Origin: a virus
DNA: 64,000 bases
Direction: 5' to 3' (one strand)
Virus record (IMG/VR): IMGVR_UViG_3300046787_000206
Span: 30,963 to 94,962 of that record
The translations under genes and the position numbers were made by a program. This document shows positions 7,173-61,309 of the stretch, piece by piece. Each line of letters starts with the position of its first letter. Position 1 is the first letter of the stretch. The notes under the pieces are model-generated. The model ran no database searches and was not told the DNA's origin. It was given only the letters and a program-made list of their open reading frames with translations.

Positions 7173-7191
7173 CTCAACACAAACAAAGTTT

Positions 7192-7219
7192 AGCCCTGCT
7201 TTTTGCAGGGCTTTTCTTT
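7192..7219 (+). terminator. Intrinsic terminator
   Basis: AGCCCTGC-TTTTT-GCAGGGCT followed by TTTCTTT. Confidence 0.75.
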
Positions 7220-7296
7220 ATCCTTAGAGGTGTAGTAACCGTGCGGAAACTACCTAGCTTTTGCTAGACCCTGCGCCTGTAAAAAGGATTTTGCTG

Positions 7297-41020: not shown

Positions 41021-41057
41021 AAAAGCCTTACTCTAGTAGTAAGTAAAAGGAGTTTCC

Positions 41058-41495: not shown

Positions 41496-41513
41496 ACAGA
41501 GTAGGTTCTACTA

Positions 41514-41750
41514 ATGGATGCTCCTTACAGCGTTCGCCCACTGGGTAACCCAATACGCTCCAACAACAGCAACTCTCAGTTCGCTAAGGTTGGAGCGGGC
41601 GCTGCCGCTAACTTCGGTAGTCAGCGTGCAATGGCATGGGGAGTCCAACGTGGAGCTGACGCTCCTGTAGAGTCTCTAAACGCACTCAACGCTGGAAGCT
41701 ACCGTAAGTTCGAAACAGGCCCTGGGTTCCAACCAGTAGAAGCGAGATAG
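41514..41750 (+). CDS. Hypothetical protein
   Basis: In-operon ORF. Confidence 0.65.
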   Translation: MDAPYSVRPLGNPIRSNNSNSQFAKVGAGAAANFGSQRAMAWGVQRGADAPVESLNALNAGSYRKFETGPGFQPVEAR

Positions 41751-41753
41751 CTC

Positions 41754-42287
41754 ATGGCTGGTGCAGCAAATAACTTCTCACCACAGCAAAACTGGCAGTC
41801 CCTGGGGGCTGGCGGTTTTTACGGCTACAATAACCAGGGCGGACAGGGAACTCCTGTAGCTCGTGGTGACCTTGATGCTATCCGCATTGGAACTGGTCGA
41901 GTACCTTCAGCAGAGTATCCAGATGGTTATCTGGGAACTATTCGCTCACGTCGTGACGACCGTCTCCTTGACTCCGTTAAAAGCCGTATTGGACAGAAGG
42001 CGTACCAGCGTGGTGTCCACAAGGGTGAGCGTATTGAGCCTAACGCCTACTACTGGCCTATGGAGTTCAACGACCAACAGGGTATCAAGCGCCAGATGAA
42101 GGCCAAGCAAGTTAATGTAAACGGAGTCACTGTTTACCAGATTCCACGTAGCGCCCCTAATATCATGCTGACCCCAGCCCCTCACCTAGTTAACGACGGT
42201 AAGTCGAACCTAGTGTCTGACTCTCCAGGGCAGATGAACGTAATGCGAGCCAACCAGCTCTCCTACTTGAAGCCAGTGTATAGATAA
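41754..42287 (+). CDS. Gly/Gln/Asn-rich hypothetical protein
   Basis: In-operon ORF, TAATG coupling downstream. Confidence 0.75.
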   Translation: MAGAANNFSPQQNWQSLGAGGFYGYNNQGGQGTPVARGDLDAIRIGTGRVPSAEYPDGYLGTIRSRRDDRLLDSVKSRIGQKAYQRGVHKGERIEPNAYYWPMEFNDQQGIKRQMKAKQVNVNGVTVYQIPRSAPNIMLTPAPHLVNDGKSNLVSDSPGQMNVMRANQLSYLKPVYR

Positions 42288-42649
42288 TGGCAAACGAGTT
42301 TGATGGAAATTACGACAATACAAAGCCGTGGAGAAACAACCAGACTGACCAGCAAGGTCGTCCTAAGTGGACCTATAACGGCCCATGGTCGTCTAACGAA
42401 GAGCGACTAACACAGCAGGCGCTGATGGTAGCAACCATTCCTGGAGCTCAAATCCAGCAGATGGTACGCCCAAACCTGCCACAACTTCAACTTTTCCCAC
42501 CACGTTTTGGTTATGGACCTCGTCTACAACCAGAGATTGATGACGTGGTATCTCTCGACCGTGTATATACAGAGCCCCGAGTTTCGTGGTTCTCAGGAGG
42601 CCCAGCAGGGTATTCTGGTAGTAGTAGAAATGACCTAGGAGCTAACTAA
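42287..42649 (+). CDS. Pro/Gln-rich hypothetical protein
   Basis: TAATG coupling on both sides. Confidence 0.75.
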   Translation: MANEFDGNYDNTKPWRNNQTDQQGRPKWTYNGPWSSNEERLTQQALMVATIPGAQIQQMVRPNLPQLQLFPPRFGYGPRLQPEIDDVVSLDRVYTEPRVSWFSGGPAGYSGSSRNDLGAN

Positions 42650-48519: not shown

Positions 48520-49005
48520 ATGCACATACTCGTAGAACTAGATGGCGTATTAAGAAGTAGGACCCAAGAGCCTATCGCCACTGGTATTCAGATGGTAGGC
48601 GCACTAAGTGCGTACAATCAAATCTCCTTAATGACAGATGCCTCCACCGCAGAGGTTACGCAGTGGTTGGATGTCAACAAAGTTGTAGATTTTGACAATG
48701 TGTTCGACGCATCCCTGAGCCTAGCGGGAGATGAGCTGCAGCACAGGCAGATTAAGTTTGCCCGAAGCAAAGGTAAAGTAGACCTATTCATCACTAATAA
48801 CCCCCTATTGTGGGCATATGCGTTTGATTTAGGTATCCCAAGCATTATGTTCGGAGTTCCGTCATACACACGGCCAGAGTTCCGCCCAGATGCACCACGT
48901 AAAGTACGTGCCTGGAATGAGATTGAAGAAGCAATCGAAAAGCAGAATGCCATGAGAACCCAGGATGCCAGACTCACACGCACAGAGGCGTTGAATTTTG
49001 AGTAA
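48520..49005 (+). CDS. HAD-fold protein (motif I degenerate)
   Basis: ILVELDGVL resembles hhhDxDGVL with D replaced by E. Confidence 0.65.
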   Translation: MHILVELDGVLRSRTQEPIATGIQMVGALSAYNQISLMTDASTAEVTQWLDVNKVVDFDNVFDASLSLAGDELQHRQIKFARSKGKVDLFITNNPLLWAYAFDLGIPSIMFGVPSYTRPEFRPDAPRKVRAWNEIEEAIEKQNAMRTQDARLTRTEALNFE

Positions 49006-50491
49006 AGTCATATTCGCTGGATGTGAAATTCCATCAAACCGCACACTACTGGAGCGTAGTGGAGTGGAGAATGTAATGTTGTCATACTGGGGCCTCCGTA
49101 AGCGTGGGTTGCCAAAGACAAAAGCGTACCTAATCGGAGAGCAGTTCGAACCCCACCTGAAGGTGTGGGTTGATAGTGGAGCAACGCAGGCAGACCAGGC
49201 AAACCTAAGTCGCCAAGAGCTGGAAGACTACGCCGCAGATTACGAAGAGTTTATCGCCATGAATTATGAGCGTATCGAAGGCTGGGTAGAGTTTGATTCC
49301 CAAGTTCTAGGTTTGCCGTGGATTCAGCAGCAGCGAGCAGCGTTCGAGAACGACCCGAAGATGTGGGTAGTGTGGCATGAGCAGTATAGTACCGCCCTCC
49401 TACAGAAGTGGGCAGAAGAATACCAAAACATAGCCATTACAGGGGCCGCAGTGGAGGCTGTGACGTCGCTGAGCGCCATTACACGGAGTCTAGGAGCAAA
49501 GTATCCAGTACAGTTCCATGGGCTCGCTGTGGCGAAGCCAGACAACCTCCGACAGATTCCATTTGCCACTACCAGCACATTAAGTTGGTTGTCACCAATG
49601 CGTCGTGGGGAAACAATTATATGGGACGGCATGAAGTTGGCCCGTTACCCAAAAAAGATGAAAGCCCAAGCACGACCAAGGTACAAGTCGGTAGTGGAGA
49701 AGGCTGGTTTAGATTTCAAGAAGTTCGTAGACGATGACACAACGGAAGCCACAAGGGTAGCCGTTTGGTCCTATTTACAGTTAGAGGTAGCAATGGATAA
49801 GGATAGACCTAAGTTCGGAGTCATCAAAGGTGGCAAAGTATCTGATAACAGTGATGACACCCTATACACTGGTTTGATGGAAATGGAGGGGTACCTGTCT
49901 AATAACAGTGACTCAGACATGCGGAAACTAGAACGGTCAGAAGTTATCGAAAGAGACCCATCTGAGGTAGTTTCAATGCCAGTTGTAGGCTACCAAATGA
50001 AGACCGTAGTAGAGACTGAAAATGGCATAGATGTACTAAAGGATGTCGCTGTTGTACAGTCTAATTCGACGTCGTTAAGACAGTGTGACACCTGTTTCGT
50101 AGCGGCAAACTGCCCCGCATTTAAGCCTCAAAACACCTGTGCGTTTAGTCTGCCAATAGAGGTAAAGACCCCAGAGCAGTTAAAGTCGTTGAATACCGCA
50201 TTATTAGAGATGCAGGCCCAGAGAGTAATGTTTATGCGGTTTGCAGAAGAATTGAATGGTGGATATGCGGACCCGAATGTGTCGCAAGAGATTGACCGTT
50301 ACCAAAAGATGTTAAAGAACATGAAGGAGTTGGATGAGCAAAAGGAGTTCATCCAAATCACTGGGTCACGTAGTTCGAGTGGCGGAGTATTGTCCGCTAT
50401 TTTTGGCGATAAAGTTCAAGCCATGAAAGAGTATCCAACACCGATTTCAGAGGAGCAAACTACGTACGTTATCAAAGATAAACTAGAGTAG
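48998..50491 (+). CDS. TGT/DpdA-like TIM-barrel protein fused to a Cys4 helical C-terminal domain
   Basis: MLSYW, VWVDSGA, EFD, VVWH, FHGLA, STLSW motif order; C-terminal CDTC...CP...C. Confidence 0.6.
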   Translation: MSKVIFAGCEIPSNRTLLERSGVENVMLSYWGLRKRGLPKTKAYLIGEQFEPHLKVWVDSGATQADQANLSRQELEDYAADYEEFIAMNYERIEGWVEFDSQVLGLPWIQQQRAAFENDPKMWVVWHEQYSTALLQKWAEEYQNIAITGAAVEAVTSLSAITRSLGAKYPVQFHGLAVAKPDNLRQIPFATTSTLSWLSPMRRGETIIWDGMKLARYPKKMKAQARPRYKSVVEKAGLDFKKFVDDDTTEATRVAVWSYLQLEVAMDKDRPKFGVIKGGKVSDNSDDTLYTGLMEMEGYLSNNSDSDMRKLERSEVIERDPSEVVSMPVVGYQMKTVVETENGIDVLKDVAVVQSNSTSLRQCDTCFVAANCPAFKPQNTCAFSLPIEVKTPEQLKSLNTALLEMQAQRVMFMRFAEELNGGYADPNVSQEIDRYQKMLKNMKELDEQKEFIQITGSRSSSGGVLSAIFGDKVQAMKEYPTPISEEQTTYVIKDKLE

Positions 50492-50549
50492 TTTTATCTG
50501 ATAACAGTGTTACTCACGACATGAATCGTGTTGGACCTGTATATAGGGG

Positions 50550-50588
50550 GGTGTGGCCCCAACACAAACAACTGTGTTAGGGCCCACC
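50550..50588. terminator. Hairpin between convergent operons
   Basis: GGCCCCAACACA / TGTGTTAGGGCC imperfect stem. Confidence 0.55.
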
Positions 50589-50592
50589 TCCT

Positions 50593-51117
50593 TTAGTTTT
50601 TATACCCTGCTACTAGACGGCGTAGGCTACCAGAGAAAGAGTCTTTGGTTACTCCAGCCATGTCAGCTAACTCAGCCAAACTAAGGGTGGGGTTGTCTAA
50701 ACGTAGCTGTGCTGCTTTGAGAGTTGCTTCAGGCACATTACCATTAGCTAACTTAAGTGCGGCTTCAATCTTGCCCCTGGCCGCTTCACCAGACTTTGCA
50801 GCACGTAGGCTGTTAGACCTTGCTAACGCAATCTCCTTGTTACCTGTCTTAGGTAGTTCGTCCTCATGAATACGGCGCTTTGTACGCACACGACGAACGA
50901 CGCCCGTACGCTCTGATGTAGTGAGGCCTCCCCAAATACCCTCGTACTGATTGTCTATTGCTACCTGCAGGCAGTCAAACTTGATGCTGCAAGTAGCGCA
51001 TACCTTCTTGGCACGCTCTACTGTTCCGTAATAATCAGTAAACGGCTCAGGGAAAAACAACTCTGGGTCAGCGTTCTTACACGCAGCCTGAGTCATGTCT
51101 AACTCTTCTATGTTCAT
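50593..51117 (-). CDS. WhiB-family domain fused to WhiA-like C-terminal HTH
   Basis: N-terminal AAC..ADPELFFP, C..C.....C, GIWGG; C-terminal VPEATLKAAQLRLDNPTLSLAELA...TKDSFSGSLRRL matches the WhiA HTH pattern. Confidence 0.8.
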   Translation of the reverse strand: MNIEELDMTQAACKNADPELFFPEPFTDYYGTVERAKKVCATCSIKFDCLQVAIDNQYEGIWGGLTTSERTGVVRRVRTKRRIHEDELPKTGNKEIALARSNSLRAAKSGEAARGKIEAALKLANGNVPEATLKAAQLRLDNPTLSLAELADMAGVTKDSFSGSLRRLVAGYKN

Positions 51118-51338
51118 CGGCGCTTTGCCTTTCTTGATAGTTCAATGAATCCGTTATTTCTTAAATCTCGTTTTATGTTTTTCAAGGCACGGATGTCCGA
51201 AGGGGTTTGCGCAGAGAAAAAGAACCTTCCTAATGGAGATTGCCATTTAAAATGGCCTCCATTAGTTAGTTCTACCTGCCAACCTTGCTCTCTTGCTTGT
51301 CTTACTAGCAAGGATAGTTCTTTGTTACTTATCTTCAT
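51114..51338 (-). CDS. HicA-like (dsRBD-fold) toxin candidate
   Basis: GWQVELTNGGHFKWQSPLG...TPSDIRALKNIKRDL; ATG 51338 is the more plausible start. Confidence 0.6.
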   Translation of the reverse strand: MKISNKELSLLVRQAREQGWQVELTNGGHFKWQSPLGRFFFSAQTPSDIRALKNIKRDLRNNGFIELSRKAKRR

Positions 51339-51492
51339 AATGCTGTTCTTTCCATGCCTCATACATGTTGTCGCAGGCACATGGGTAGTAGTTGCATACG
51401 CTACACAACTCTTCGTGCTCCGTGCACTCCTGTTCACAATCCTCGCACTCGTCACAGGCCAGGTTGTTATCCATCCAGTCATTCCATCCCAT
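51325..51492 (-). CDS. 55-aa acidic protein with 8 Cys; not in ORF track
   Basis: MGWNDWMDNNLACDECEDCEQECTEHEELCSVCNYYPCACDNMYEAWKEQHYEDK. Confidence 0.6.
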   Translation of the reverse strand: MGWNDWMDNNLACDECEDCEQECTEHEELCSVCNYYPCACDNMYEAWKEQHYEDK

Positions 51493-51497
51493 GATTA

Positions 51498-51671
51498 CTA
51501 GATGCCCTTTACTGCTTCAATTGCTTCTGAAATGGTAAGCACGTTAGCCATAGAGTACTCGGTGTCAGTAGCGTCGTTAGACTTCATTGACTTGAACATG
51601 GCAACTACTTCTTCTTGCATTACTTTCTTACCCATACGGATACCCTGGGCTAGAGTTTCTGATTCAGTCAT
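51498..51671 (-). CDS. 57-aa hypothetical protein; not in ORF track
   Basis: AAGGA RBS; MTESETLAQGIRMGKK... Confidence 0.6.
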   Translation of the reverse strand: MTESETLAQGIRMGKKVMQEEVVAMFKSMKSNDATDTEYSMANVLTISEAIEAVKGI

Positions 51672-51846
51672 TTGTTTTTTCCTTTACTTGTCCATAGGTG
51701 AACACTTGTTTATGTAACTCGTTATATATTTTGGCTAGTTCCTTGCAGGCCTTCCATTCACCTGCGTGTGTGTATGCTGACTCTGCCTGCTTGAGTGCAG
51801 GGAACAGCAACTCTACCTGTTGCTTAGTTAGTTCTAGTTCAATCAC
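51664..51846 (-). CDS. Hypothetical protein
   Basis: AAGGAG RBS; overlap-coupled. Confidence 0.65.
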   Translation of the reverse strand: MIELELTKQQVELLFPALKQAESAYTHAGEWKACKELAKIYNELHKQVFTYGQVKEKTND

Positions 51847-52217
51847 AACTTATCTCCTTCTAGCCATACCTTGAATGATGCTTTATCAATCTCCCGAAGG
51901 TCATACGCCATCTTCTTAGCGGCATCCTGAAGGTGGCTTGCAGCTGCTTGCCAGCCTTTCTTGTAAGCCTTGGTTTCTTTGGCACCTGCTTCAGGATTTG
52001 CGGTCAACTCTGCAACTTGTGCTTCTAGTTGAGTAATGCGAGCATTCCGTTTAGCCAGGGTTGCTTGCAGTCCTTCAATGTGAATGTGCAGGTTTTCTAA
52101 CTTCATGTCTTGCTTACTAGGTGGTCCATCACGCCATTCATCGAAACTAATGCCGCATAGACCACAACGGTTGGCTTCTTTGTCTTCTTGTGTTACATAC
52201 ATGTGGTCGCAGTTCAT
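51843..52217 (-). CDS. Zn-finger plus coiled-coil protein
   Basis: CDH...CGLC then heptad repeats. Confidence 0.7.
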   Translation of the reverse strand: MNCDHMYVTQEDKEANRCGLCGISFDEWRDGPPSKQDMKLENLHIHIEGLQATLAKRNARITQLEAQVAELTANPEAGAKETKAYKKGWQAAASHLQDAAKKMAYDLREIDKASFKVWLEGDKL

Positions 52218-52390
52218 TTGTTCTTCTCTTCTCTTATATATCGTTCAATAACTTCTTGGGTAGCCGCATAGCGGTAGTCATCTTTATCCCAACGGTTTAC
52301 ATACTCACCATCAGGTGTAATGCCAATACTCCAACCGTCGTACACTCCACGGACTTCTATGAGGTATACATAGTCTTCTATTAGGCTCAT

Positions 52391-52621
52391 TTACTTCTCT
52401 CCTTTGATAAGAGCGATAAGCCCTTGAGTGTAGCCCCCATCGCTCAGCCCATATTTGCTGATGATGTCCTGTAGCAGTTTAATAATTCGCTGTTCTGCTA
52501 AAGACTCTCCATAACAGACAGGGCATACATCTTCATCTACATTAGTGAAGTCCCAGCCATGCTCATCACACACATACCAAGTAGAGTGCTTACCTACTAC
52601 CTCACGCATACGTTCAGCCAC
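52391..52621 (-). CDS. Small zinc-binding protein
   Basis: CDEH...CPVC; AGGAG RBS. Confidence 0.7.
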   Translation of the reverse strand: MAERMREVVGKHSTWYVCDEHGWDFTNVDEDVCPVCYGESLAEQRIIKLLQDIISKYGLSDGGYTQGLIALIKGEK

Positions 52622-52775
52622 GTTTATCTCCTATCATCCATAAGATAATACTTACACTAACTAGTACTACTGACAATGGCCAGGCATTACCGTCTATAGC
52701 CATTCCCCACACACCTACGAAGCCTACGCCTACGGCTAAGCCACGCCACACGGCTTGTTTGTGTTGGCTCATCAT
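52614..52775 (-). CDS. 53-aa two-helix membrane protein; not in ORF track
   Basis: GAGG RBS; MMSQHKQAVWRGLAVGVGFVGVWGMAIDGNAWPLSVVLVSVSIILWMIGDKRG. Confidence 0.6.
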   Translation of the reverse strand: MMSQHKQAVWRGLAVGVGFVGVWGMAIDGNAWPLSVVLVSVSIILWMIGDKRG

Positions 52776-52947
52776 GCCTCGTTCACATAGTAGTTACCAG
52801 TCAAGCCCTCGGACTCTGTGTCGTATTCGATATAGGCAAGTTCTCCCATTACAACCTTGTGTGCGGTGTCATAAGCGTCGTCTACGTTGTCTGCTTCTAC
52901 TTCTACTCTATGAGATATCAACTCATAGATGATTACTTCGTACTCCA

Positions 52948-53163
52948 TCACTCTGTTTCTACTTCATACTCTCCGTATACCTTGTGGTATGGGAAGTCAT
53001 CTTCTTGTTCTTCAATCCACACACGACTGATTTCTCCGCCATCCATGTCTTTAGTCCAGTCGTCAATCCATGCTTGTGCATCCGCTTCGTTATCGAATAT
53101 GGGTGCGTAACGTACATCTCCAGGACCATCACAATCTATGGCCCAAATTACAAACTTACTCAT
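52948..53163 (-). CDS. Small acidic protein
   Basis: AAGGAG RBS; TAATG coupling. Confidence 0.7.
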   Translation of the reverse strand: MSKFVIWAIDCDGPGDVRYAPIFDNEADAQAWIDDWTKDMDGGEISRVWIEEQEDDFPYHKVYGEYEVETE

Positions 53164-53429
53164 TAGTTGTTCTCCTTTACTAGTTCGTATACCATCTCTT
53201 CAAAGTTAGTGGCTTCACCGTTGTTGTCAAAGAAGTAGCACCCATCTTCCAGTGCCTTATACATCCACCCTGCGTCTACGTCGCAAGGAAACTCTTCGAA
53301 GATAGGCTCTAGCGCTTCTTCTTCTATGCGAGTCAAGTACTTGCGGTTCTTCATTACCTTGTTAGACCAGAACTCTGCGCTAATACGTGCAGTGCTTTCT
53401 TCTACATCAAAGGTTATGTACTTATCCAT
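53163..53429 (-). CDS. Small acidic protein
   Basis: GGAGG RBS. Confidence 0.7.
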   Translation of the reverse strand: MDKYITFDVEESTARISAEFWSNKVMKNRKYLTRIEEEALEPIFEEFPCDVDAGWMYKALEDGCYFFDNNGEATNFEEMVYELVKENN

Positions 53430-53595
53430 TACTCATCCTCCATTACATCGAAGTCCCACTTGTTATCTACAATGTGGGGTTCAAAGTCATCAGCAATCCA
53501 TTCGCTAATGAACTCTAGCGCCCCCTGTTCATCTTCTGCTTCTACTTCAATCTCATAAGTAGTTGTTCTATATGCTTCTATTAGGTACTTAGCCA

Positions 53596-53829
53596 TTAGT
53601 TGTGCTCCTCTAGGTATGTATAGATTTCTTTAAGTAGTTCTGATGTGGTTAGGTCAAGTGCATTGGCCATACACTCTAGTAGTTCGCTTGATGCTCCCTT
53701 CTTACCTGTCTCTACTTCGGACCAATGTCCAATAGAGATGTACCTACGCCCTGCGGCTTCTCGCAAGGTAAGCCCTTGTTCTGTGCGAATTTTGCGCACT
53801 GTTGCTCCTATAGCGGTTTGTAGTTTCAT
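53596..53829 (-). CDS. XRE-family HTH regulator resembling actinobacterial ClgR
   Basis: AIGATVRKIRTEQGLTLRE...SIGHWSEVETGKKGASSELL. Confidence 0.8.
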   Translation of the reverse strand: MKLQTAIGATVRKIRTEQGLTLREAAGRRYISIGHWSEVETGKKGASSELLECMANALDLTTSELLKEIYTYLEEHN

Positions 53830-53831
53830 AA

Positions 53832-54098
53832 TTAGTCCTTGTCTACTAGGTGCTGACCTTCTAGTTGAGTACTAGACAACTTACAGATTTGACACTTACC
53901 TGTAAAGATGCGGTGTACGTTCAGGTTAAAGTGCTGGGCTAAGTCCATGCGCTCGCTGGATAGGCACTCATCAATCAACTTGAACATGCTATCTGTCCAG
54001 TGAGTTGTAGGGATAATGATGTGCGAAGTGCCTGCTTCTAGCGTTAGGTTATCTCGCTTACCCCAGTTACCGTTAGATTGAAAATAATACTGCGACAT
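53832..54098 (-). CDS. Hypothetical protein
   Basis: AAGGAG RBS. Confidence 0.7.
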   Translation of the reverse strand: MSQYYFQSNGNWGKRDNLTLEAGTSHIIIPTTHWTDSMFKLIDECLSSERMDLAQHFNLNVHRIFTGKCQICKLSSTQLEGQHLVDKD

Positions 54099-54177
54099 TA
54101 CTGCTCCTTTACAATGTGAATGAACTTGAAGTTATCTTCAGTTACTAGTGGTGTGCCACCTAAGGTGGCTTGTTTTA

Positions 54178-54531
54178 TTAGTTCAACTGCTGTTCGTTCA
54201 TCAGTTGCTGTGATTTTAAGTTCGCTGTATGAACTAACTCCGTCAACATGGAAGACGTAGACTGCCATGACTCCTCCTCTACCTTTGTATTTTTAGGTGG
54301 TACTTGTTTAGTAGCGACAGGTTTTGCTTTAGGTTTTGTCGCTGATTTTTTCTTCAACGCTGGCTTAGTTAATACCTTGTTGTGCTTAGCGTTGTACTCC
54401 TTAGTGAATAGAGTCATGTCTACGTGGCATAGACAATGGCAAGTGATTGGTTTGCCATACTCAAACTCTTTTGTACAGTTAGTGTGTTGCTCTATGTCCA
54501 TGTCTGGTAAACACCAGCCGAATAAAGCCAT
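54178..54531 (-). CDS. Cys/His N-terminal domain plus Lys-rich linker protein
   Basis: GGAGG RBS; GWC...H..C...CHCLCH. Confidence 0.7.
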   Translation of the reverse strand: MALFGWCLPDMDIEQHTNCTKEFEYGKPITCHCLCHVDMTLFTKEYNAKHNKVLTKPALKKKSATKPKAKPVATKQVPPKNTKVEEESWQSTSSMLTELVHTANLKSQQLMNEQQLN

Positions 54532-54561
54532 GATTGCCTCCTATAGGTTTGTTTGTGTTGG

Positions 54562-56499
54562 CTAGGCAGTCGCAAGGTTGCGAGCGATACCTACCTTGAC
54601 TAGTCGCTTGGCTAGACCGAACAACTGACTAGCCTCATTGACTAGCACTGCTACCTCGCAACCGTGAGTGTCAATAGTAATCTCGCTACGACTACGCTTG
54701 TAGTTCGGACCGTAATCAGCGTAACGCTCGTTCCACCAGTCGGTGTCATCTACATAGGCTAGTGCTGTAAGCACACCGCCCTTACGCAACTGACGCACGA
54801 TGTTGTCACACTCGTCACGCTGTGACCATGCTCCATCAGTAATGGAGATGATTAACTTAACGGCTCGCCTAGACTCGGCAAGAACATACTTGGCATACTT
54901 GAGAGCCTTGAGTGGCTCGGTGCCACGACCCATGTCAGTAACACGCTTCTGGTATGTAGCACGTTCATTGGCTGAGTAAAGAACACGTGCCGCATCGTCA
55001 AAGGCAATGACTGTAGTAGAGGCGTTGATTTTATCCATAGCCCGCTTGATAGCCCACATGTTGTCGTAAGCCTTGTTGATAGTCCATGACATAGAAGGAG
55101 ATGTGTCTAATAGAATGACACACTCAATGTCTACTGCGTCTTCACGACCTAGTTCCCAACGGTCAAACGCTTCGTCTACGTCACAACCAACACCGTAGCG
55201 TAGGACATTGAGTTTGCCACTGTCTTGACGCTTGTCCCACGCTGGGTCGTACTCACCCTTAAGCAACTCTAGTTCGCCACCGAATGACTTGGAGGCGGTG
55301 ACTGCTTCGAATGGCACGTCACTGTTGTATGACTCAGCCTTAGTAGGAGTAGCGACAGCATTGCTACTAAGTTCTGCTTCGCCATTGAACTGACGTATGG
55401 TGTTGTCAATGTCGTCAGACAACCTGTCCATAGCGTTGTAGAGCGTGTCTTCTAGAAGTTCATCTAGAATCTCACGGTCTTGACGGTTGTCGTCACCACG
55501 ACCTGCTTGCTTGCTACTGGCATCACTGTCAGGGGTAGGAGTGCGGTCTGACTGACCCTCTGATTGCTCGCTGTCAGACTGCTCTGACTGCTGACGTTTC
55601 ATACGGTCAATGATGTCTTGCTGTTCGCCCTTAGACATAGGCTTGCTAGTAGAGGAGGACTTGAGTTCGCCCTCTTTGCGCTGGTCGTGACCACTAGGGT
55701 CTTGGATACGTTGCCAACCAGTTGCTCGGTCATAAGCGTCAGTAGGGTTTGCTGGCTGTAGTTGCTTGACTAGTTCGTCATAACGCTGGATAAGTGGCTG
55801 TGCTAGGTTACACTGCGCTGGGTCAGCAAGGTTGAGCATTACGTACTGGTCTACGATAGATGTCATCTCCGACACACTGGCTGGGTCTTCGTATACCTGA
55901 GCGACAGCGTTACGCAACTCTATAGGCAGGTACTTACGACCTACGATGATAGGGAACGCTACTGAATACTGCTTAGGGTTGTTGAGCAAGTGCTGAGCAA
56001 TAAGAGCGACCATCCACTCGGTAATGCTTGGATACTTAGTGGTCATCATGGTCTCGATACGCATGTCTTCTAGCGCATTGAACGAACGCCATAGGTCATT
56101 CTGACGAACCCAAGTGCCTAGGTTAGAGCCAACACGAGGAGTCATAAGAATGTGGCAAATCTCGTGGAGAGATAGACCCTTGATAGCAGTAATAACCTTA
56201 GGGTCATTCAACTTACCTAACTTGCCAGTAGCAAACCAGATGTTGTCTGCGTCAGACCAAGCAGGTGCTGGAGCATTGAAGTCAGCGTCTAGGTGAACCT
56301 TGATGTGACGGAGAGTAAGGGTGCTAGCAAACTTACTGACTACCTGTGCCATACGGAGCATACGCTCGTGGTCACGATTGAGTGTGCCTGTATTAGACAA
56401 GGTAATAGTAGTTCCTACAGGAACTTCTATAGGCTCTGGCTCTGCGAATAAATCATCACCCTCGATGTCTAGTTCTAGAGGGTCTGTAAAAGCGGTCAC
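54562..56499 (-). CDS. vWA-domain protein with N-terminal HExxH metallopeptidase-like domain (CobT-like)
   Basis: HEICH and NALED; acidic linker; MIDAS DTSPS and ITDG; GTG 56499 has an AAAGG RBS. Confidence 0.85.
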   Translation of the reverse strand: MTAFTDPLELDIEGDDLFAEPEPIEVPVGTTITLSNTGTLNRDHERMLRMAQVVSKFASTLTLRHIKVHLDADFNAPAPAWSDADNIWFATGKLGKLNDPKVITAIKGLSLHEICHILMTPRVGSNLGTWVRQNDLWRSFNALEDMRIETMMTTKYPSITEWMVALIAQHLLNNPKQYSVAFPIIVGRKYLPIELRNAVAQVYEDPASVSEMTSIVDQYVMLNLADPAQCNLAQPLIQRYDELVKQLQPANPTDAYDRATGWQRIQDPSGHDQRKEGELKSSSTSKPMSKGEQQDIIDRMKRQQSEQSDSEQSEGQSDRTPTPDSDASSKQAGRGDDNRQDREILDELLEDTLYNAMDRLSDDIDNTIRQFNGEAELSSNAVATPTKAESYNSDVPFEAVTASKSFGGELELLKGEYDPAWDKRQDSGKLNVLRYGVGCDVDEAFDRWELGREDAVDIECVILLDTSPSMSWTINKAYDNMWAIKRAMDKINASTTVIAFDDAARVLYSANERATYQKRVTDMGRGTEPLKALKYAKYVLAESRRAVKLIISITDGAWSQRDECDNIVRQLRKGGVLTALAYVDDTDWWNERYADYGPNYKRSRSEITIDTHGCEVAVLVNEASQLFGLAKRLVKVGIARNLATA

Positions 56500-56540
56500 G
56501 ATGTGCCTTTCTATAGGTGCGGAATGTTTGTGTTGGAGCC

Positions 56541-56572
56541 ACACCCTAGGTAACTACTGCTACCTAGGGTGT
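56541..56572. promoter_or_regulatory. Intergenic hairpin between AAA+ and vWA genes
   Basis: ACACCCTAGGTA / TACCTAGGGTGT perfect 12-bp stem, loop ACTACTGC. Confidence 0.65.
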
Positions 56573-56581
56573 GTATAGCAA

Positions 56582-58009
56582 CTACTTGACTGAGTATGCG
56601 CCAGTAGAGACGTTGAGTTCCTGAGCAATCTTGTCGAACTCAGCGTCAAAGCGCATCTTGAGAGCCTCACGCTCACCGTCAGACTTAGGGAACGCATTGA
56701 GTAGTGCGGTCACTGCGAACTCAAAGTTAAGGTTGGTAGCCTGAGCAATGAAGTTCTTAAGCAAGCGGGTAGACATAGGTACTGAGAACTGGTCGCTCAT
56801 CTCGCTAGCCTGACGGATACTGTTAGCGAACAACAGCAAGGTAGGTGACTTGATGAACTTGGATTCAATCTTGTCGTCATACTTGAACTCCAACTTGACG
56901 TTGAAGCGGTCTAGTAGGGCGTTGTCCTGACGAACTGTGCCTGTATAACCTAGACCTGTGTTCTGGTCAGCAATAAAGATACATTCTGGGTGAACCTTGA
57001 TGACCTCGTTGAGTGGCTCGATAAGCAACTCACGCTCTTGTAGCAGACGTAGGAACAACGAAGCAGACTTGGCGTTCATACGGGTCAACTCGTTGATAAG
57101 GATTACTGACGGCTGTTGAATGGCTGTTGCCAACTGTGAGTAAGTCCAGCGCATACTGTTACCTACACCAGTTGGAACGTAACGACCCTGAGTAATACTC
57201 TGGTCAATCTGCTGTGTACATTCGATAGTGACGAACGGCAGGTTGTGCTTAGCGGCATAGTTTCTAGCACTACTGGTCTTACCTGTGCCAGCGTCACCAG
57301 TGAGTAGCACGTTCAACTGTGACTTGTGAGCCCAAGCGTATACCTGTGACTCCGTAACGCCGTTCCACTCACGCTCATAGTATTCTTCTACATCAGGTGT
57401 GTGTAGCACCGCTTGTGTAGTAACTTCTGTGGCTGGTGGAGAGATTAGTGTAGTCATCTCCATAACATTCTCCTTTACTGGTTCTGTAGTAGTGATGGAC
57501 AAGCCCATCAACTTGTCACGCAACTCTTCTAGCGTCTCCATAACAGGTTCGTCTACTGGCTCTACTACGGTCTCTACTACAGGCTGTGGTGTTACCTGAA
57601 TAGACGGGCTAACTACTACTGGTGACATAGCCTTGGTGTATTTCATAAGGCTTGCTGGGCTAGTTACTGCGTCACTCAAGATGTCGGTGTATACCTGCCC
57701 TAGAGTGTTAGGTGCTAGGACATACGCTTCATCTTTTACCTGACGCACTAGTTTCTGCATCAAGGTAGTAGGTGTTAGAGGGAACTGTAGGTCTCGGTAG
57801 TCACTAGGCGTAATGGAGATAGCCTTAGGGACACCTACAATGAACTCGTCTAGTGCTACTGCGTCAGGTGCGGTCTCTGACCAAGCCCCTGAGACACCAC
57901 GACCACCACCTACACGATTGAACACTCGGACTGACTTATCCATAAGTGGAACTACTGCGGTCTGTCGAACTCCATAAGGAGACTGCGACTGGATTATAAC
58001 TGCGAACAT
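56582..58009 (-). CDS. MoxR/CobS/CbbQ-type AAA+ ATPase
   Basis: GDAGTGKT Walker A, ILINE Walker B variant, ALLDRF arginine finger; likely start ATG 58009. Confidence 0.85.
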   Translation of the reverse strand: MFAVIIQSQSPYGVRQTAVVPLMDKSVRVFNRVGGGRGVSGAWSETAPDAVALDEFIVGVPKAISITPSDYRDLQFPLTPTTLMQKLVRQVKDEAYVLAPNTLGQVYTDILSDAVTSPASLMKYTKAMSPVVVSPSIQVTPQPVVETVVEPVDEPVMETLEELRDKLMGLSITTTEPVKENVMEMTTLISPPATEVTTQAVLHTPDVEEYYEREWNGVTESQVYAWAHKSQLNVLLTGDAGTGKTSSARNYAAKHNLPFVTIECTQQIDQSITQGRYVPTGVGNSMRWTYSQLATAIQQPSVILINELTRMNAKSASLFLRLLQERELLIEPLNEVIKVHPECIFIADQNTGLGYTGTVRQDNALLDRFNVKLEFKYDDKIESKFIKSPTLLLFANSIRQASEMSDQFSVPMSTRLLKNFIAQATNLNFEFAVTALLNAFPKSDGEREALKMRFDAEFDKIAQELNVSTGAYSVK

Positions 58010-58025
58010 ACTATTACTCTCTTTC

Positions 58026-58217
58026 TTATAGGGTGTTGCTGGTTTTGTTTGTGTTGGCACGCTCTGCGAGGAACTCTCGTAGAACTTCAGCGTAGATAGC
58101 GGCAACTTCTACATCTTCTAGATTCACTAGGTCACCGTCAGTCTCCTGTGGTCTGCTATCTACAGGTGGTAGGTAGGGCTCCATTAGACTCTTGATGAGT
58201 TCAATTGGGTCTGTCAT
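58026..58217 (-). CDS. Hypothetical protein
   Basis: AAGGAG RBS; ATGA overlap. Confidence 0.65.
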   Translation of the reverse strand: MTDPIELIKSLMEPYLPPVDSRPQETDGDLVNLEDVEVAAIYAEVLREFLAERANTNKTSNTL

Positions 58218-59020
58218 ACTGTCTCTCCTTCTAGTTGTGTTACTACATACTCAGGCTCATACTGCTTAGTGAGTAGTTCTACTCCAGCAATGGGGTCATA
58301 GCCTGAGAGGTCATTGGTTACTGCTTGCTGTGCGTCTTCTGCGCTACGAGCCTTAACAGTAAAGGTGGATACTAGTTTGACTTCGTATACTGTGTCGAAT
58401 GTCTTGCCAGGGCAATCGTCATACCAGTCATCAACATCATCAGTTTGCGAGCAATAGCAAGAGTCCACACGGTCAAGGTCTACATAGTCTTGGTGACTGC
58501 CTGGAATGTCCCACTCTTTAGTAGGGGTATAGACTCCGTTGTTATTCTTAGCCTCTGCGCCCCAGCCCTGCTCTTCTTCATAGGAGAAGTCAATGTCTAG
58601 AGTAGGGAACTGCTCACAGATAGCGTGGAACACTTCAATAGGAGCGCCCCAAGGACTGTCGAAGGTAACGCTTACAGACGCTCGGTTCTGGTCATCTCTA
58701 TAGATGTCTAGGTCAGCACTACCAGCATCCCACTTGACTCCCCAGTTAGAGCAGTTCCAGTTATACCAGTTGAACTCTGTATCACCTGTTCTGGTGAAGC
58801 CGCCTTTACCATCAGCCTTACTACCATTGGTCTCGTGATACTCGTCTCGGTGCTCTCTATCTAGAGTGATGAATGAGTGGTATGAGAACGACTTACCTGA
58901 CTCCCAGTCATCATCATTTAGAAACTCAGGCTTACTAGAGATGAGAGTAATAAATCGCTCCATCTCCTCTAGGTCGTTAGGTCCTGCTACCTGAACGCTG
59001 TTGTATACCCAGTTTGGCAT
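58214..59020 (-). CDS. DUF1281/YubB-like ferredoxin-fold protein
   Basis: MPNWVYN, WYNWNCSNWGVKWD, FDSPWGAP motifs. Confidence 0.8.
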   Translation of the reverse strand: MPNWVYNSVQVAGPNDLEEMERFITLISSKPEFLNDDDWESGKSFSYHSFITLDREHRDEYHETNGSKADGKGGFTRTGDTEFNWYNWNCSNWGVKWDAGSADLDIYRDDQNRASVSVTFDSPWGAPIEVFHAICEQFPTLDIDFSYEEEQGWGAEAKNNNGVYTPTKEWDIPGSHQDYVDLDRVDSCYCSQTDDVDDWYDDCPGKTFDTVYEVKLVSTFTVKARSAEDAQQAVTNDLSGYDPIAGVELLTKQYEPEYVVTQLEGETV

Positions 59021-59142
59021 TACTTGCTCCTTCTAACTAATACTGCCTGCCATACAGACAGTTGAATGACTACTAGGCTAATGAGCCTGATGAGCCAAGT
59101 GTTTAGTGTGTGGTTATAGCGGTGTTTGTGTTGGTTGCTCAT
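59020..59142 (-). CDS. 40-aa hydrophobic peptide; not in ORF track
   Basis: GGAGGAG RBS; MSNQHKHRYNHTLNTWLIRLISLVVIQLSVWQAVLVRRSK; TAATG overlap. Confidence 0.55.
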   Translation of the reverse strand: MSNQHKHRYNHTLNTWLIRLISLVVIQLSVWQAVLVRRSK

Positions 59143-59205
59143 AGCGTTGCTCCTCCATCTAGTTCTTACGAACTAATGCGCTCTCACTCATAGAGAGCAC
59201 ACTAG

Positions 59206-59250
59206 AAAATAAGAACGCCCCTGCTACACGTCTGTATAGCAGGGGCTTCT
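59206..59250 (-). terminator. Intrinsic terminator
   Basis: GCCCCTGCTA / TAGCAGGGGC stem with U-rich tail on minus strand. Confidence 0.7.
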
Positions 59251-59257
59251 CTCTTAC

Positions 59258-59740
59258 TTATAGTGATGCGGTAATACGGTTGAACTCACTCACAGTGAAC
59301 TTAGTGCCTACTTCGATACAAGATAGCCACTCAATAGAGTTCTTTAGGTCGTGAATAACCTGGTCTACTGACTGCGTGCGCCCCTGACGGTCATACATAC
59401 GAGGGAACTCTACATACTTACGCTCTGGGTAAGTGTATAGGGTGTCCCAGTCAGGCTCGTTGTTCAAGACATCACTAGGTAGACGGAACTCTACTGTAGT
59501 GTCTCCACGATAGTTCTTACCCAGAGATAGGCTCTCTAGGTTGGCAGGCTTACGAAGATACTGCTTGATAGACCCTACTGCCCACTTGTGATACTCCTTC
59601 TTACGAGTCTCACGAATAGAGTCAGTCTCCTTACGGTAGTCCTCGTCATACTGCTTCTGCTCTGCCTGTAGTTTCTCTAGTAGAGCGATTTTTGCCTTAG
59701 CCTTGGCTATAACTGCTGGAAGGTTCATTTCGATTGCCAT
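59258..59740 (-). CDS. Hypothetical protein
   Basis: AAGGAG RBS. Confidence 0.75.
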   Translation of the reverse strand: MAIEMNLPAVIAKAKAKIALLEKLQAEQKQYDEDYRKETDSIRETRKKEYHKWAVGSIKQYLRKPANLESLSLGKNYRGDTTVEFRLPSDVLNNEPDWDTLYTYPERKYVEFPRMYDRQGRTQSVDQVIHDLKNSIEWLSCIEVGTKFTVSEFNRITASL

Positions 59741-59768
59741 TGTGTATCTCCTTAGTTGTTGTTTGGTG

Positions 59769-60059
59769 TTACTTGGTTACTTTTAGCCCACGGCGGGCAA
59801 TGCCAGTGTGAATACTTGTGGTCACACTGAACTTCTTGTCTGTTACCCAGATGTTTCTAGAGGTAACTACATCATTGTTCTCGTCATAGTCCTGTGTATA
59901 GGTGACTGTGGCGATAGGTTCGGCGTATGACATAACTACATACTGCCTAACGCTGTCTATAACGGTGTTATAGCCTCTTAGAGAGCCTGTAGAGAGGATA
60001 AAGTCTTGCTCATTAGCCACACGCTCTACAGCGTCTTTACGGTTTACTTTGATGCTCAT
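59769..60059 (-). CDS. Hypothetical protein
   Basis: AAGGAG RBS; SYAEPIA...FSVTTSIH motif. Confidence 0.75.
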   Translation of the reverse strand: MSIKVNRKDAVERVANEQDFILSTGSLRGYNTVIDSVRQYVVMSYAEPIATVTYTQDYDENNDVVTSRNIWVTDKKFSVTTSIHTGIARRGLKVTK

Positions 60060-60092
60060 TGTTTTGCTCCTTATAGGTTTGTTTGTGTTGGG

Positions 60093-60443
60093 CTAGCCGT
60101 AGATTACTTCACCGAAGCACGCTACTTGAATGATTACGTCATAGACTTCGCTATCCATACGGTGTGCGTCTTCGTAGTTCATAAGGTCTAGGGCGATAGC
60201 GTCTACTATGTCTGACCTAATGGCTACTTCTCTATCTAATAGAGACTGGATAGCCTTAGTAATGTCTGAGTAGTGAACTACATAGACCTTTCCATCTTCT
60301 CCATCAGTGATGGTATATGTCTGTGCGTCTTCGTCTACTACGGCTTTAGTTGCCCAGTAGTGGATACCATAGCCAGCCCCCTCAATGATGTCTTCAATCA
60401 TCTCGTGGGTTACTTCTACGTTCATACGGACTACATAAGTCAT
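60093..60443 (-). CDS. Acidic hypothetical protein
   Basis: GIHYWA...DVIIQVACFGEVIYG motif. Confidence 0.75.
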   Translation of the reverse strand: MTYVVRMNVEVTHEMIEDIIEGAGYGIHYWATKAVVDEDAQTYTITDGEDGKVYVVHYSDITKAIQSLLDREVAIRSDIVDAIALDLMNYEDAHRMDSEVYDVIIQVACFGEVIYG

Positions 60444-60542
60444 TAGTTACTCTTTCCTGTTACTTCTAGGCAGACGACACAGATTTGGTATAGGTCGCCA
60501 AGTTCTAGGTCGTCTACTGGGTCAATGAATGTGTGAATGTGC

Positions 60543-60755
60543 TTAGGCATACATAACCTTCATCTCGTAGTCATAGGCATAACGCTCTGCGTCACTCCAA
60601 GCCATCTCTCCATAGAACAACTTGGTCTTCTTATCACTGGTTACTACCTTGAAATAGTCATCATCAAAGACTGCTGTGCCTACATAGATGCTGTAGTCAT
60701 TCGTCTCGTCTTGTAGTTCCCACTCTTTTACTAGGGCTACGCTCGGCTTGCTCAT
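60543..60755 (-). CDS. Hypothetical protein
   Basis: AAGGAG RBS. Confidence 0.7.
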   Translation of the reverse strand: MSKPSVALVKEWELQDETNDYSIYVGTAVFDDDYFKVVTSDKKTKLFYGEMAWSDAERYAYDYEMKVMYA

Positions 60756-60882
60756 TACTTGCTCTCCTTCTTGAATAGGGCTACGGCTTCACGCTTGGTG
60801 TAGCCATAGTATTGCTTAGTTACTAAGTAGCCGTTCACTACGTCACTAATGACATAGGCACCGCTATAGTTCTTCTCTATGC

Positions 60883-61068
60883 TCACTTGTTCATCTCCTT
60901 TACATAGGCTAGACGGCGTAGTGCCTGCTCTAGTTCATACCTGACTCCTGTTACAGCCTCGTCTAACTGTGCCGTAGGGTGCCCAGCCATAGTTCTTAGG
61001 CTTAGATACTGGGATAACTTACGCTGTAACCCTGCTATCTGTGCTTTGACTTCATCTTCTTTATACAT
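60883..61068 (-). CDS. Hypothetical helical protein
   Basis: AAGGAGG RBS. Confidence 0.7.
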   Translation of the reverse strand: MYKEDEVKAQIAGLQRKLSQYLSLRTMAGHPTAQLDEAVTGVRYELEQALRRLAYVKEMNK

Positions 61069-61309
61069 AACAGCCTCCTTAGGCTATACATAAAACGCCC
61101 CTGCCGAGTGGCAGAGGCTATGGGGGGGTCTAAGGGGGGGCTACGCCCTCCCCTTTAGAAGAAAAGACCTGTGATGGTCTTTAGAAGAGAGAGAAGAATA
61201 ACTATAGAGAAGAAACACATAGATAGATACATACTCTCTCCCTTGGCTTGTGTGACTTATAGGTGCCGTTTGTTTGTGTCGGTCACCTATAGCCCAAGAA
61301 CTTCTAGGT

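Follow-up and report, generated by a model that had tools for sequence, protein, structure and literature searches.

A lineage-specific 12-base word at gene boundaries of uncultured actinobacterial phages, and its possible reading on the transcript

The window analysed here is a 64-kb stretch of DNA forming the right end of a 94,962-bp phage record, and its leftward arm carries repeated copies of a short word originally described as an 11-mer. The word actually comprises 12 bases (CCAACACAAACA): all 30 boundary copies compared, from six genomes, have A at the twelfth position, and no further conserved column was found from -60 to +60 around these copies. It is composed of C and A alone and has the general frame CCA-N4-AAACA. 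All nine sites of the original prediction were recovered with the same coordinates and strands, namely seven exact 11-mers (50559 on the plus strand; 52757, 54551, 56526, 58047, 59124, and 60081 on the minus strand) and two one-mismatch variants (61272, minus strand, CCGACACAAAC; 7174, plus strand, TCAACACAAAC). A search of the entire 94,962-bp genome added one exact plus-strand copy beyond the window (genome position 18792).

Copies in the leftward arm begin with the variant CCGACACAAACA (61271–61282, minus strand), shown in the loop of a hairpin at 61256–61292 (dG -17.3, z -4.7) and lying 154 nt upstream of an intrinsic terminator inside the arm (61097–61118, minus strand); no copy was found between this terminator and the five genes after it. 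The remaining minus-strand copies are exact 12-mers. The one at 60080–60091 sits 1 nt past the stop of a 116-aa gene, with AACCTATAAGGAG and then the ATG of a 96-aa gene after it. A second intrinsic terminator inside the arm (59217–59246, minus strand; 13-bp stem and T-rich tail) lies 83 nt upstream of the copy at 59123–59134, which occupies codons 3–6 of a 40-aa hydrophobic ORF (59020–59142), 103 nt before a DUF1281_C gene. The copy at 58046–58057 overlaps a 63-aa ORF at its 3′ end, with the likely ATG of a CobS-like AAA_5 ATPase ~40 nt downstream, while that at 56525–56536 is 25 nt before the GTG of a VWA (CobT-like) gene, with a 15-bp hairpin lacking a U-tract (56542–56571; dG -28.1, z -6.3) ending 5 nt before it. 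The TAG stop of the VWA gene is abutted by the copy at 54550–54561, after which come AACCTATAGGAGG and the start codon (ATG) of a 117-aa ORF. The last, at 52756–52767, takes up codons 3–6 of a hydrophobic ORF of 53 aa whose start codon shares bases with the preceding stop (ATGA). The earlier observation that two copies (59124 and 52757) fall inside small hydrophobic ORFs was borne out, both in the same frame (MSNQHKH... and MMSQHKQ..., respectively). Sigma-70-like promoters are scarce in this arm (7 against 16.7 expected).

On the plus strand, the exact 12-mer at 50559–50570 lies inside a bidirectional terminator hairpin (50545–50592; dG -33.4, z -4.7), its AACAC pairing with GUGUU downstream. 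This hairpin had been placed after the WhiB-WhiA gene, and it indeed separates the two arms, with a TGT/DpdA-like gene on the rightward side and the WhiB-WhiA gene on the leftward side; arm-junction copies also occur in three relatives (G001, G003, and G004). The window's other plus-strand copy, the variant TCAACACAAACA (7174–7185), is directly 3′ of the last head-operon gene and, in agreement with the original description, just ahead (6 nt) of an intrinsic terminator at 7192–7219. The equivalent site in G002, G003, G009, G415, G417, and G419 holds each relative's own version of the word.

A second box, CTATA(A/G), follows six of the seven minus-strand copies at 4–15 nt, as had been noted, with a chance probability of ~1e-12 given 72 such words in the genome; it takes the form CCTATA(A/G) at 61257–61263, 60071–60077, 58026–58032, 56511–56517, and 54541–54547, and CTATAA at 59114–59119 (all minus strand). 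Four of the boxes merge into the Shine-Dalgarno (SD) sequence, also as described. The box is specific to the source phage, its place in relatives being taken by CCTAAG, CTAAGG, or the ribosome-binding site (RBS) directly.

The word is far more frequent than expected, with nine occurrences against 1.47 ± 1.12 in shuffled sequences (maximum 4). It is the most frequent intergenic word of the source phage (G000), and the top intergenic 8-mer in G000, G001, G003, and G415 belongs to it. Gene boundaries, 29% of all positions, hold 41 of the 49 copies counted in eight genomes. A strand bias is evident among these 41, 37 being sense and four antisense; every antisense copy is at, or no more than ~1 kb from, a point where the genes change strand, which in three cases is the convergent junction of the arms. 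The proposal of a non-random, oriented regulatory signal in the leftward arm is upheld.

The bearers of the word are a large family of uncultured 90-kb actinobacterial phages. Lack of conservation in related phages had been named as grounds for discarding the motif, and the opposite was found: 11 of 14 large related records contain the exact word, 42 copies in all (reversed control, 0), even though the proteins neighbouring it are merely 40–60% identical between relatives. With a degenerate 12-variant pattern, 39 of 40 matches were canonical. One lineage has switched in concert: G417 has no canonical copies; CCAAGGCAAACA occurs there eight times, six times at gene boundaries and in settings like those of the canonical word, and ACAC has become AGGC throughout. 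The word of G419 is CCACAACAAACA, which gives three versions of the central four bases by lineage (ACAC, AGGC, and CAAC), and G420 has no word. Two complete relatives have few copies or none, and the signal is therefore dispensable.

The word is not a host element. In 401 Actinomycetota genomes, 49 matches were found, with a maximum of four per genome and, by a rough count, about as many for the reversed control; this is no enrichment. The Rhodococcus matches form a repeat that reads, from its translation, as NRPS-like coding sequence, and Rfam showed no rRNA there.

Four settings recur among the copies. In the first, the word precedes a start codon by 12–42 nt; it is without exception 5′ of the SD sequence, sometimes within the last codons of the preceding ORF, and stays with orthologous downstream genes despite differing gene order (G000 versus G001). 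In the second, it directly follows a covarying GC hairpin without a U-tract behind the capsid gene, as in 51 of 80 relatives; here the word is fused to the 3′ arm of the hairpin, the stem sequences vary freely, and compensatory change is seen at five of nine pairs. In the third, it stands 0–7 nt before the 5′ arm of intrinsic terminators, at the head-operon end and the arm junction. In the fourth, seen in five cases (G003 5955, G003 9342, G009 4693, and window positions 61272 and 50559), a long hairpin has the word as its loop. Flank-shuffle controls gave no sign of selection for accessibility of the word (native 0.733 versus shuffled 0.749, p 0.6), and it is unpaired because its composition is C and A only.

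The original prediction likened the (A/G)ACAC core to the WhiA GACAC site and suggested that the WhiB-WhiA(HTH) fusion may bind it; in this reading the fusion, or else host WhiA, would activate promoters of the arm from a WhiA-type box. The fusion is real, a single 174-aa protein matching WhiB (2.3e-17) and HTH_WhiA (2.9e-8), and the variant copy at 61272 does contain GACAC. However, canonical copies have AACAC instead of GACAC, and the G417 copies, having lost ACAC, have AGGC. The WhiA HTH (PF02650) is missing from nine related records, eight with the identical word and one (G417) with its variant; CheckV puts seven of the nine at 98% completeness or more, and the orthologues in these records are plain WhiB proteins of 70–90 aa. 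No -10 element occurs at a fixed distance, so the geometry of a promoter with a WhiA box is lacking, and since several copies end 12–16 nt before the start codon, there is no room for a -35-type activator site. With the WhiA HTH confined to the source phage, the WhiA reading fails, and we regard it as very improbable.

In phages, intergenic words that recur in one orientation without variation are usually promoters, and the T4 late promoter element TATAAATA is a model for a compact promoter needing a phage specificity factor. The word could accordingly be a compact phage-specific promoter, its 12 bp corresponding to about -12 to +1, with transcription starting at or just past it and with host RNA polymerase plus an unrecognised phage specificity factor, or an unrecognised phage polymerase, as the reader. 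Its position 12–42 nt before start codons, its tracking of the downstream gene, and the copy that follows the terminator at 59217–59246 would all fit, as would the concerted switch of central bases in G417; T7-group phage promoters differ among themselves in just this manner. On the other side, sigma-70 region 2 was not found, the two-barrel DxDGD motif occurs in no protein except a Cas4-like nuclease, and no large unassigned conserved ORF was seen among the phage proteins; PF00940 (T7-type polymerase) was unmatched in five records, but the search controls were silent too. The non-template strand has no T or G and hence no TANNNT -10 element, and a partner element at fixed spacing is absent. 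In five to six cases, with 2–5 nt between the word and the SD sequence, transcription would have to start within the conserved block. Moreover, conserved copies point straight into terminators or occupy hairpin loops, and genes following the terminator at 61097–61118 have no copy ahead of them. We consider a promoter unlikely, if a serious competitor.

A phage DNA-binding protein might instead recognise the word as an oriented site in double-stranded DNA and act as a stoperator-like roadblock or elongation switch, which seems to us rather improbable but is a serious competitor too. The word shares asymmetry, intergenic location, and orientation along transcription in both arms with L5 stoperators, and one candidate binder is a conserved 161-aa MerR-like HTH protein (window 30591–31076), present in all relatives examined with an almost invariant HTH-wing segment. 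Against this, the MerR-like protein shows no excess of G417-specific changes and is kept in G420, which has no word, and both the tight juxtaposition to hairpins and display in a loop would be meaningless for a duplex. Phage_integrase and Resolvase were not found in five records (controls positive), which, together with direct terminal repeats in complete relatives, points to lytic phages and counts against such a site.

Likeness to stoperators, and to start-associated sequences (SAS), had been suggested from the outset; it holds in form, all being short, asymmetric, and oriented elements at boundaries, but not for the RBS position of SAS, their extended partner, or the link to lysogeny. Cluster A stoperators, the sites of L5 gp71, which have been contrasted with SAS (PMC3203893), share with the word an asymmetric site of 12–13 bp (up to 17 bp), short intergenic gaps, presence in both arms, and orientation with transcription. 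They serve, however, in prophage silencing through the immunity repressor, whereas there is no sign of lysogeny here, and their sequences vary between immunity groups while the word is identical across very diverged phages. The SAS and ESAS of Cluster K mycobacteriophages and Cluster EF Microbacterium phages (PMC3203893, PMC7302621) resemble it in being short, asymmetric, and in a single orientation before many start codons, mostly among non-structural genes, in being kept across phages with differing neighbour genes, and in being essentially absent from host genomes. The SAS (GGGATAGGAGCCC), though, is the RBS itself, 3–7 bp from the start and containing AGGAG, whereas the word has no G and lies 12–42 nt upstream with a separate SD. 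Unlike SAS, the word also occurs without a gene, before terminators, and fused to hairpins. About half of SAS sites have an upstream 17-bp imperfect inverted repeat (ESAS), which the word lacks, the hairpins upstream of it being unrelated in sequence. Cluster EC/EI Microbacterium phages carry an 18-bp asymmetric intergenic motif in ~12 repeats (PMC7302621), likewise found in lytic phages and in short intergenic gaps, 22–30 bp upstream of starts. It is unlike the word in sequence and length, these phages encode a sigma factor while none was found here, and an association with hairpins or terminators, as seen for the word, is not described for it.

Could the word act in translation, as an enhancer, stand-by site, or operator in selected cistron leaders, through an unstructured C/A tract or repressor binding? 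CA-rich leaders enhance translation in bacteria, the word is always 5′ of the SD sequence before starts, and other leaders are CA-rich too, for example at window 59741–59768 and after the capsid hairpin in distant relatives. Yet lack of structure needs no letter-perfect 12 nt, a G is present in the G417 variant, and a concerted switch of this kind would be impossible for pairing with host rRNA. Pre-terminator copies serve no cistron, and the distance to the start codon spans -42 to +7. We give this explanation little credence.

The option of an RNA-level signal, also raised originally, fits the hairpin and terminator contexts best. We therefore favour, tentatively and at somewhat less than even chances, a lineage-specific signal read on the transcript by a putative, probably phage-encoded factor, with processing or read-through at cistron boundaries as the outcome. 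The intrinsic terminators within the leftward arm, its scarcity of sigma-70-like promoters, and the genes that follow 61097–61118 with no word in front, were counted in its favour. We infer action as RNA, a phage-encoded reader, and one of the two outcomes. In the working model, the word would be a cis-signal on polycistronic transcripts, recognised as exposed single-stranded RNA and marking cistron boundaries as punctuation. A sequence-specific factor that co-evolves with the phage, and is probably encoded by it, would act on the RNA beside hairpins, leaving upstream products with hairpin-protected 3′ ends (the capsid mRNA, for example) and downstream mRNAs starting with a short unstructured CA-rich leader ahead of the SD sequence. 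In a close variant, the bound factor would allow RNA polymerase through the terminators adjoining the signal. Each outcome meets an objection: a cut immediately before a terminator brings no obvious benefit, and a convergent junction is a place where a signal for read-through would do harm. Among the conserved proteins, no ribonuclease, antiterminator, or classic RNA-binding domain was found except SpoVS, which is nearly unchanged in G419 with its variant word and kept in G420 with none, and is thus a weak candidate for the specificity reader.

Transcript-borne signals beside hairpins that control read-through or cutting between cistrons include lambda nut, rrn boxA/boxC, and the T7 RNase III punctuation sites. 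In lambdoid phages, nut and N form specificity pairs that change from one lineage to another; an operon has a single nut site, however, whereas the word recurs every 1–2 kb. At T7 sites a host enzyme cuts hairpins, whereas the word is a single-stranded sequence. The suggested kinship with boxA fails, the word being unlike boxA (UGCUCUUUA), without U, and not enriched in hosts; binding of NusA to boxC requires AUA/AUU (PMC2724277).

The most far-reaching form of the transcript reading is a reprogrammable RNA 'punctuation code', in which a phage-encoded, sequence-specific single-strand RNA reader of CCA-N4-AAACA would cut or re-license polycistronic transcripts next to hairpins and between cistrons, and the central four bases would set lineage specificity. 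We regard this form as speculative and unlikely. If true, such a code would parallel nut/N pairs or tRNA punctuation as a viral, multi-copy system, and it would belong to the most abundant freshwater-type actinophage family.

Every site named in the original prediction is present in the sequence, and the 11-mer described there belongs to a 12-base word, CCAACACAAACA, whose 12th base is invariant in the alignment that defines the element (30 gene-boundary copies from six related genomes). Nine matches with at most one mismatch were counted against 1.47 expected, and one more exact copy lies beyond the window, at genome position 18792. The 13th base is A in 20 of the 30 aligned copies, and no other conserved column was found outside the word between -60 and +60. 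The second box, CTATA(A/G), does lie downstream of six of the seven minus-strand copies (chance ~1e-12) and is peculiar to this phage, its relatives carrying CCTAAG, CTAAGG or the ribosome-binding site (RBS) directly. The copies at 59124 and 52757 fall, as had been noticed, near the beginning of small hydrophobic ORFs, at codons 3-6 and in an identical reading frame. A literature search for the word returned only unrelated primers.

Related phages were recruited by three markers, an AAA ATPase, a post-capsid gene and a conserved MerR-like protein; 310 contigs were retrieved via the post-capsid gene and 319 via the MerR-like protein, and the family, with members of ~90-95 kb, is therefore large. 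Conservation in related phages, the point on which the motif had been staked, was found: 11 of 14 large records contain the exact 12-mer, with 42 copies in all, none contains the reversed control, and with a pattern permitting 12 variants the canonical word made up 39 of 40 matches (37 records). In four genomes it is the top intergenic 8-mer, outranking the RBS. Copies sit at gene boundaries in 41 of 49 cases across eight genomes, boundaries representing 29% of positions, and 37 of these 41 are aligned with the local gene direction; the four opposite-facing ones lie at a gene-strand switch or within ~1 kb of one, three being at the junction where the arms converge. As the proteins encoded next to the copies are merely 30-60% identical between genomes, comparison of the sequences argues that all 12 positions are under strong selection. 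The motif is a real, family-wide feature under strong selection.

The 94,962-bp IMG/VR record, of which the window forms positions 30,963-94,962, is 99% complete (CheckV) and, in gene calls made for the present analysis, consists of a long rightward arm and a 12-kb leftward, 'early' arm. The former runs from small genes and tRNAs through lysis, terminase/portal/capsid and tail genes to a replication module (DnaB, primase, SNF2, PolA, RecA, resolvases, two WhiB, SpoVS and a TGT/DpdA-like protein), and the latter, from window 62,096 down to 50,593, comprises ~30 mostly small ORFs, among whose products are a CobS-like AAA_5 ATPase, a CobT-like VWA protein, a DUF1281_C protein and an XRE-type HTH protein; its last gene encodes a WhiB-WhiA(HTH) fusion. 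Cellular WhiB relatives are found nearly all in Actinomycetota, which makes an actinobacterial host very likely. No integrase/resolvase was found in the phage records searched and complete relatives have direct terminal repeats, so that these phages look lytic. Megablast against GenBank phages gave zero matches. The AAA_5 ATPase and VWA protein (window 54562-58006, -) match a CobS/CobT-type pair (phrog_249, 'porphyrin biosynthesis'); this pair, which is unmatched in the relative G009, WhiB and DUF1281_C are the only arm genes kept in most relatives. A 497-aa protein (window 48998-50491, +) matches phage queuine tRNA-ribosyltransferase/DpdA-like proteins (phrog_887, 1e-62), and the phage DNA may thus carry a 7-deazaguanine-type modification. 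At window 40724-42649 (+), SpoVS precedes a conserved run of proteins that have no assignment. Two of these, a 177-aa protein rich in Gly/Asn/Gln and in Arg and a 120-aa one rich in Pro/Trp, show 66-86% identity between relatives and match nothing in Pfam or PHROG; ESM Atlas returned nothing for two conserved proteins, the 177-aa one among them.

Four settings of the word recur, at orthologous places. In leaders, it ends 12-42 nt upstream of the start codon, invariably 5' of the Shine-Dalgarno sequence, and often begins 0-5 nt past the preceding stop or within the final codons of the preceding ORF. Each leftward arm has three to seven such copies, spaced 1-2 kb apart in the window and ~3 kb apart in the relative G003, and the word tracks the CobS-like, CobT-like and DUF1281_C genes despite gene-order differences between genomes. 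A translational enhancer or operator, one reading of copies so placed, seems very improbable.

In the second setting the word follows the capsid gene, joined to a GC-rich hairpin that lacks a U-tract and whose stem is closed by the first two C of the word. The canonical word stands behind this stem in 51 of 80 relatives; the stem sequences are quite different, and compensatory changes are seen at five of nine pairs (RNAalifold). More distant relatives keep the hairpin, followed by degenerate CA-rich tracts or a real T-tract. At distant-relative loci L442-L447, L454, L456 and L457, upstream of the post-capsid gene, the hairpin loop is fixed as CATACTCCTTCTTTG, complementary to a Shine-Dalgarno sequence, and CCGCCACAAAAA follows in place of the 12-mer.

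The third setting places the word 0-7 nt ahead of intrinsic terminators. One such site, at the end of the head operon, lies at window 7174 and at the equivalent place in G002, G003, G009, G415, G417 and G419, and is degenerate in G001 and G420; a second lies at the convergent junction between the two arms. The spacer after the head operon (window 7186-7296, +) is conserved across relatives except for the covarying terminator stem; it reads AAAGTTTAGC ... CTTTTCTTTATCCTTA, then a second hairpin, and the following operon may have its start signals here. In the fourth setting a long hairpin has the word as its loop (G003 5955 and 9342, G009 4693, window 61272 and 50559). The 5' arm of the hairpin displaying the first copy (window 61284-61292, -) is CTATAGGTG, also the core of the published 18-bp motif TAGaCTATaGGTgTaAgC of Cluster EC Microbacterium phages, a single instance that is maybe coincidence. 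Comparison with shuffled flanks showed no indication that accessibility of the word is under selection.

We favour a reading in which the word is recognised in the transcript, exposed and single-stranded, because of the strict sense orientation, because placement tracks the downstream cistron and not non-coding space, and above all because of the repeated physical coupling to RNA hairpins, the word being fused to the 3' arm, abutting the 5' arm of a terminator or forming the loop. For mycobacterial RNA polymerase, a hairpin without a U-tract should not terminate alone; a protective role at the 3' end would suit the capsid hairpin only if the RNA were cut just downstream, exactly where the invariant word stands. 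The leftward arm, in turn, has two good intrinsic terminators (61097-61118 and, further along, 59217-59246, -), and the five genes past the first of them have no copy of the word ahead, so that read-through control or processing would be needed. The word could thus be a transcript 'punctuation' signal acting via processing or, as an alternative within the RNA-level reading, could license read-through; its putative reader is probably a phage-encoded factor, and no nuclease or antiterminator was found in the phage proteins. The RNA-level reading as a whole is offered tentatively, with chances somewhat short of even. Both arm terminators share a stem-tail word, GCAGGGGCGTT, and AGGGGCGTT occurs at five intergenic places in G009, which suggests a conserved terminator module.

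A compact promoter, ending at the start site, is considered unlikely. The two-part sigma-70-type form was rejected: no partner element keeps a fixed distance from the word, which has no T or G in its coding-sense strand, and sigma-70-like matches in the arm are rarer than expected. Neither a phage RNA polymerase nor a phage sigma factor was detected, the former carrying little weight as the controls of the PF00940 search were equally silent. The word might also be an oriented site read on duplex DNA, with the MerR-like protein (161 aa, window 30591-31076) as one possible binder; the HTH-wing segment of this protein is nearly invariant, and its profile found nothing significant in the PDB. The duplex-DNA reading we regard as quite unlikely.

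The proposal that the word is a WhiA box, and a target of the WhiB-WhiA fusion, had to be abandoned. Among ten records the WhiA HTH occurs in this phage only, and eight of the nine others keep the identical word, G417 having a variant; the canonical core is AACAC, not GACAC, and ACAC is entirely lost in G417. The fusion (window 50593-51117, -) was likewise found in this phage alone among the ten related records tested, and its HTH looks like a recent gain, since relatives have a plain 70-90-aa WhiB at the same arm end; a genome-contig scan with the protein returned zero host relatives. The supposed likeness to boxA sites also failed, as NusA boxC requires AUA/AUU (PMC2724277) and the word has no U. 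A word of C and A permits no wobble, so a pairing partner must be an exact complement; the sole complements are opposite-strand copies, and the one at the junction that could act on the early arm is absent from G009, G415 and G417. Pairing with 16S rRNA or with an antisense guide RNA was rejected on these grounds. As a host cis-element the 12-mer fares no better, being unenriched in 401 Actinomycetota genomes, a result independent of the one unpublished genome among them (G062). Five copies in a Rhodococcus draft, considered as rrn repeats, belong to a repeat at contig ends whose translation looks NRPS-like, and no rRNA was detected there by Rfam.

Three complete relatives, G417, G419 and G420, lack the canonical word. 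G417 carries eight copies of CCAAGGCAAACA, six of them at gene boundaries and in the same kinds of place (downstream of the capsid hairpin, ahead of the terminator that closes the head operon, and within leaders of the early arm), G419 has CCACAACAAACA at both late sites and CCGCAACAAACA in a single leader, and G420 retains only a decayed remnant; CCAAAGCAAACA occurs in two further contigs. An exact 14-mer scan of viral contigs for more GGC-type genomes gave only single chance matches. The G417, G419 and CCAAAGCAAACA variants delineate a constant frame, CCA-N4-AAACA, whose middle, on this comparison, switches in concert within a lineage. These concerted changes, together with the zero enrichment in the host-phylum genomes, point to a reader that co-evolves with the phage and is not a universal host factor; another explanation is that G417 may use a different host. 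Some relatives have repeats of other kinds. In G004 (L027-L029) a different, near-palindromic intergenic word, TGTATAACA/TGTTATACA, occurs six to seven times and looks like an operator, and G009 likewise has five occurrences of CAGCGAAC/GTTCGCTG. In G420 (L250-L251), the divergent inter-arm region holds a cluster of TAGATCCA/GATCCAGATC repeats that could be origin or operator repeats, and a long tandem repeat of CCAGAAGCAA-type units is read by us as a Lys/Pro/Glu/Ala-rich coding repeat (G420 repeat positions ~24,000-25,700 and 17,000-17,320).

SpoVS (window 40724-41020), with an Alba-like fold, is the most conserved protein of the family (82-92% identity) and is unusually diverged in G417 (73%), which fits co-variation with the word; as specificity reader it is contradicted by G419, where it is 92% identical beside a different word, and by G420, which retains it with the word absent. 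When positions that are otherwise invariant were screened for changes specific to G417, the top ranks went to a 135-aa basic/acidic helical protein (window 33877-34284), the CobS-like ATPase and SpoVS, and the MerR-like protein came out low; with a single variant lineage to draw on, these candidate readers are only a lead. Gene presence/absence against G420 yielded small uninformative genes only.

Conserved, oriented start-associated words are a recurrent and unexplained feature of actinobacteriophage genomes. The nearest described are the start-associated sequences (SAS) of Cluster K and Cluster EF phages (PMC3203893, PMC7302621), first described in 2011 and still purely in silico in analyses from 2025 (PMC12699233); near, too, are the asymmetric intergenic motifs of Cluster EC and EI Microbacterium phages (PMC7302621), their function likewise unexplained, and, in form, the stoperators of Cluster A phages. 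Asymmetry, orientation, start association and cluster-wide conservation are common to all of these and the word. However, SAS by definition occupy the RBS and contain AGGAG, whereas the word does neither, and the inverted-repeat extension of SAS (ESAS) has no counterpart beside it. Over and above these known elements, the word has its settings at hairpins and terminators and a concerted switch that is documented, and the phages carrying it show no sign of lysogeny. It thereby offers three handles: a letter-perfect word across a very large, diverged uncultured family; orthologous positions fixed beside covarying RNA hairpins and terminators; and a natural specificity swap in one lineage, CAC to GGC, a ready-made reciprocal test for the reader. 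If the word is a promoter, it would represent a new class of minimal promoter used by actinobacterial RNA polymerase; if it acts as RNA, it would show how long operons are expressed in large lytic actinophages that seem to have no polymerases or sigma factors of their own.
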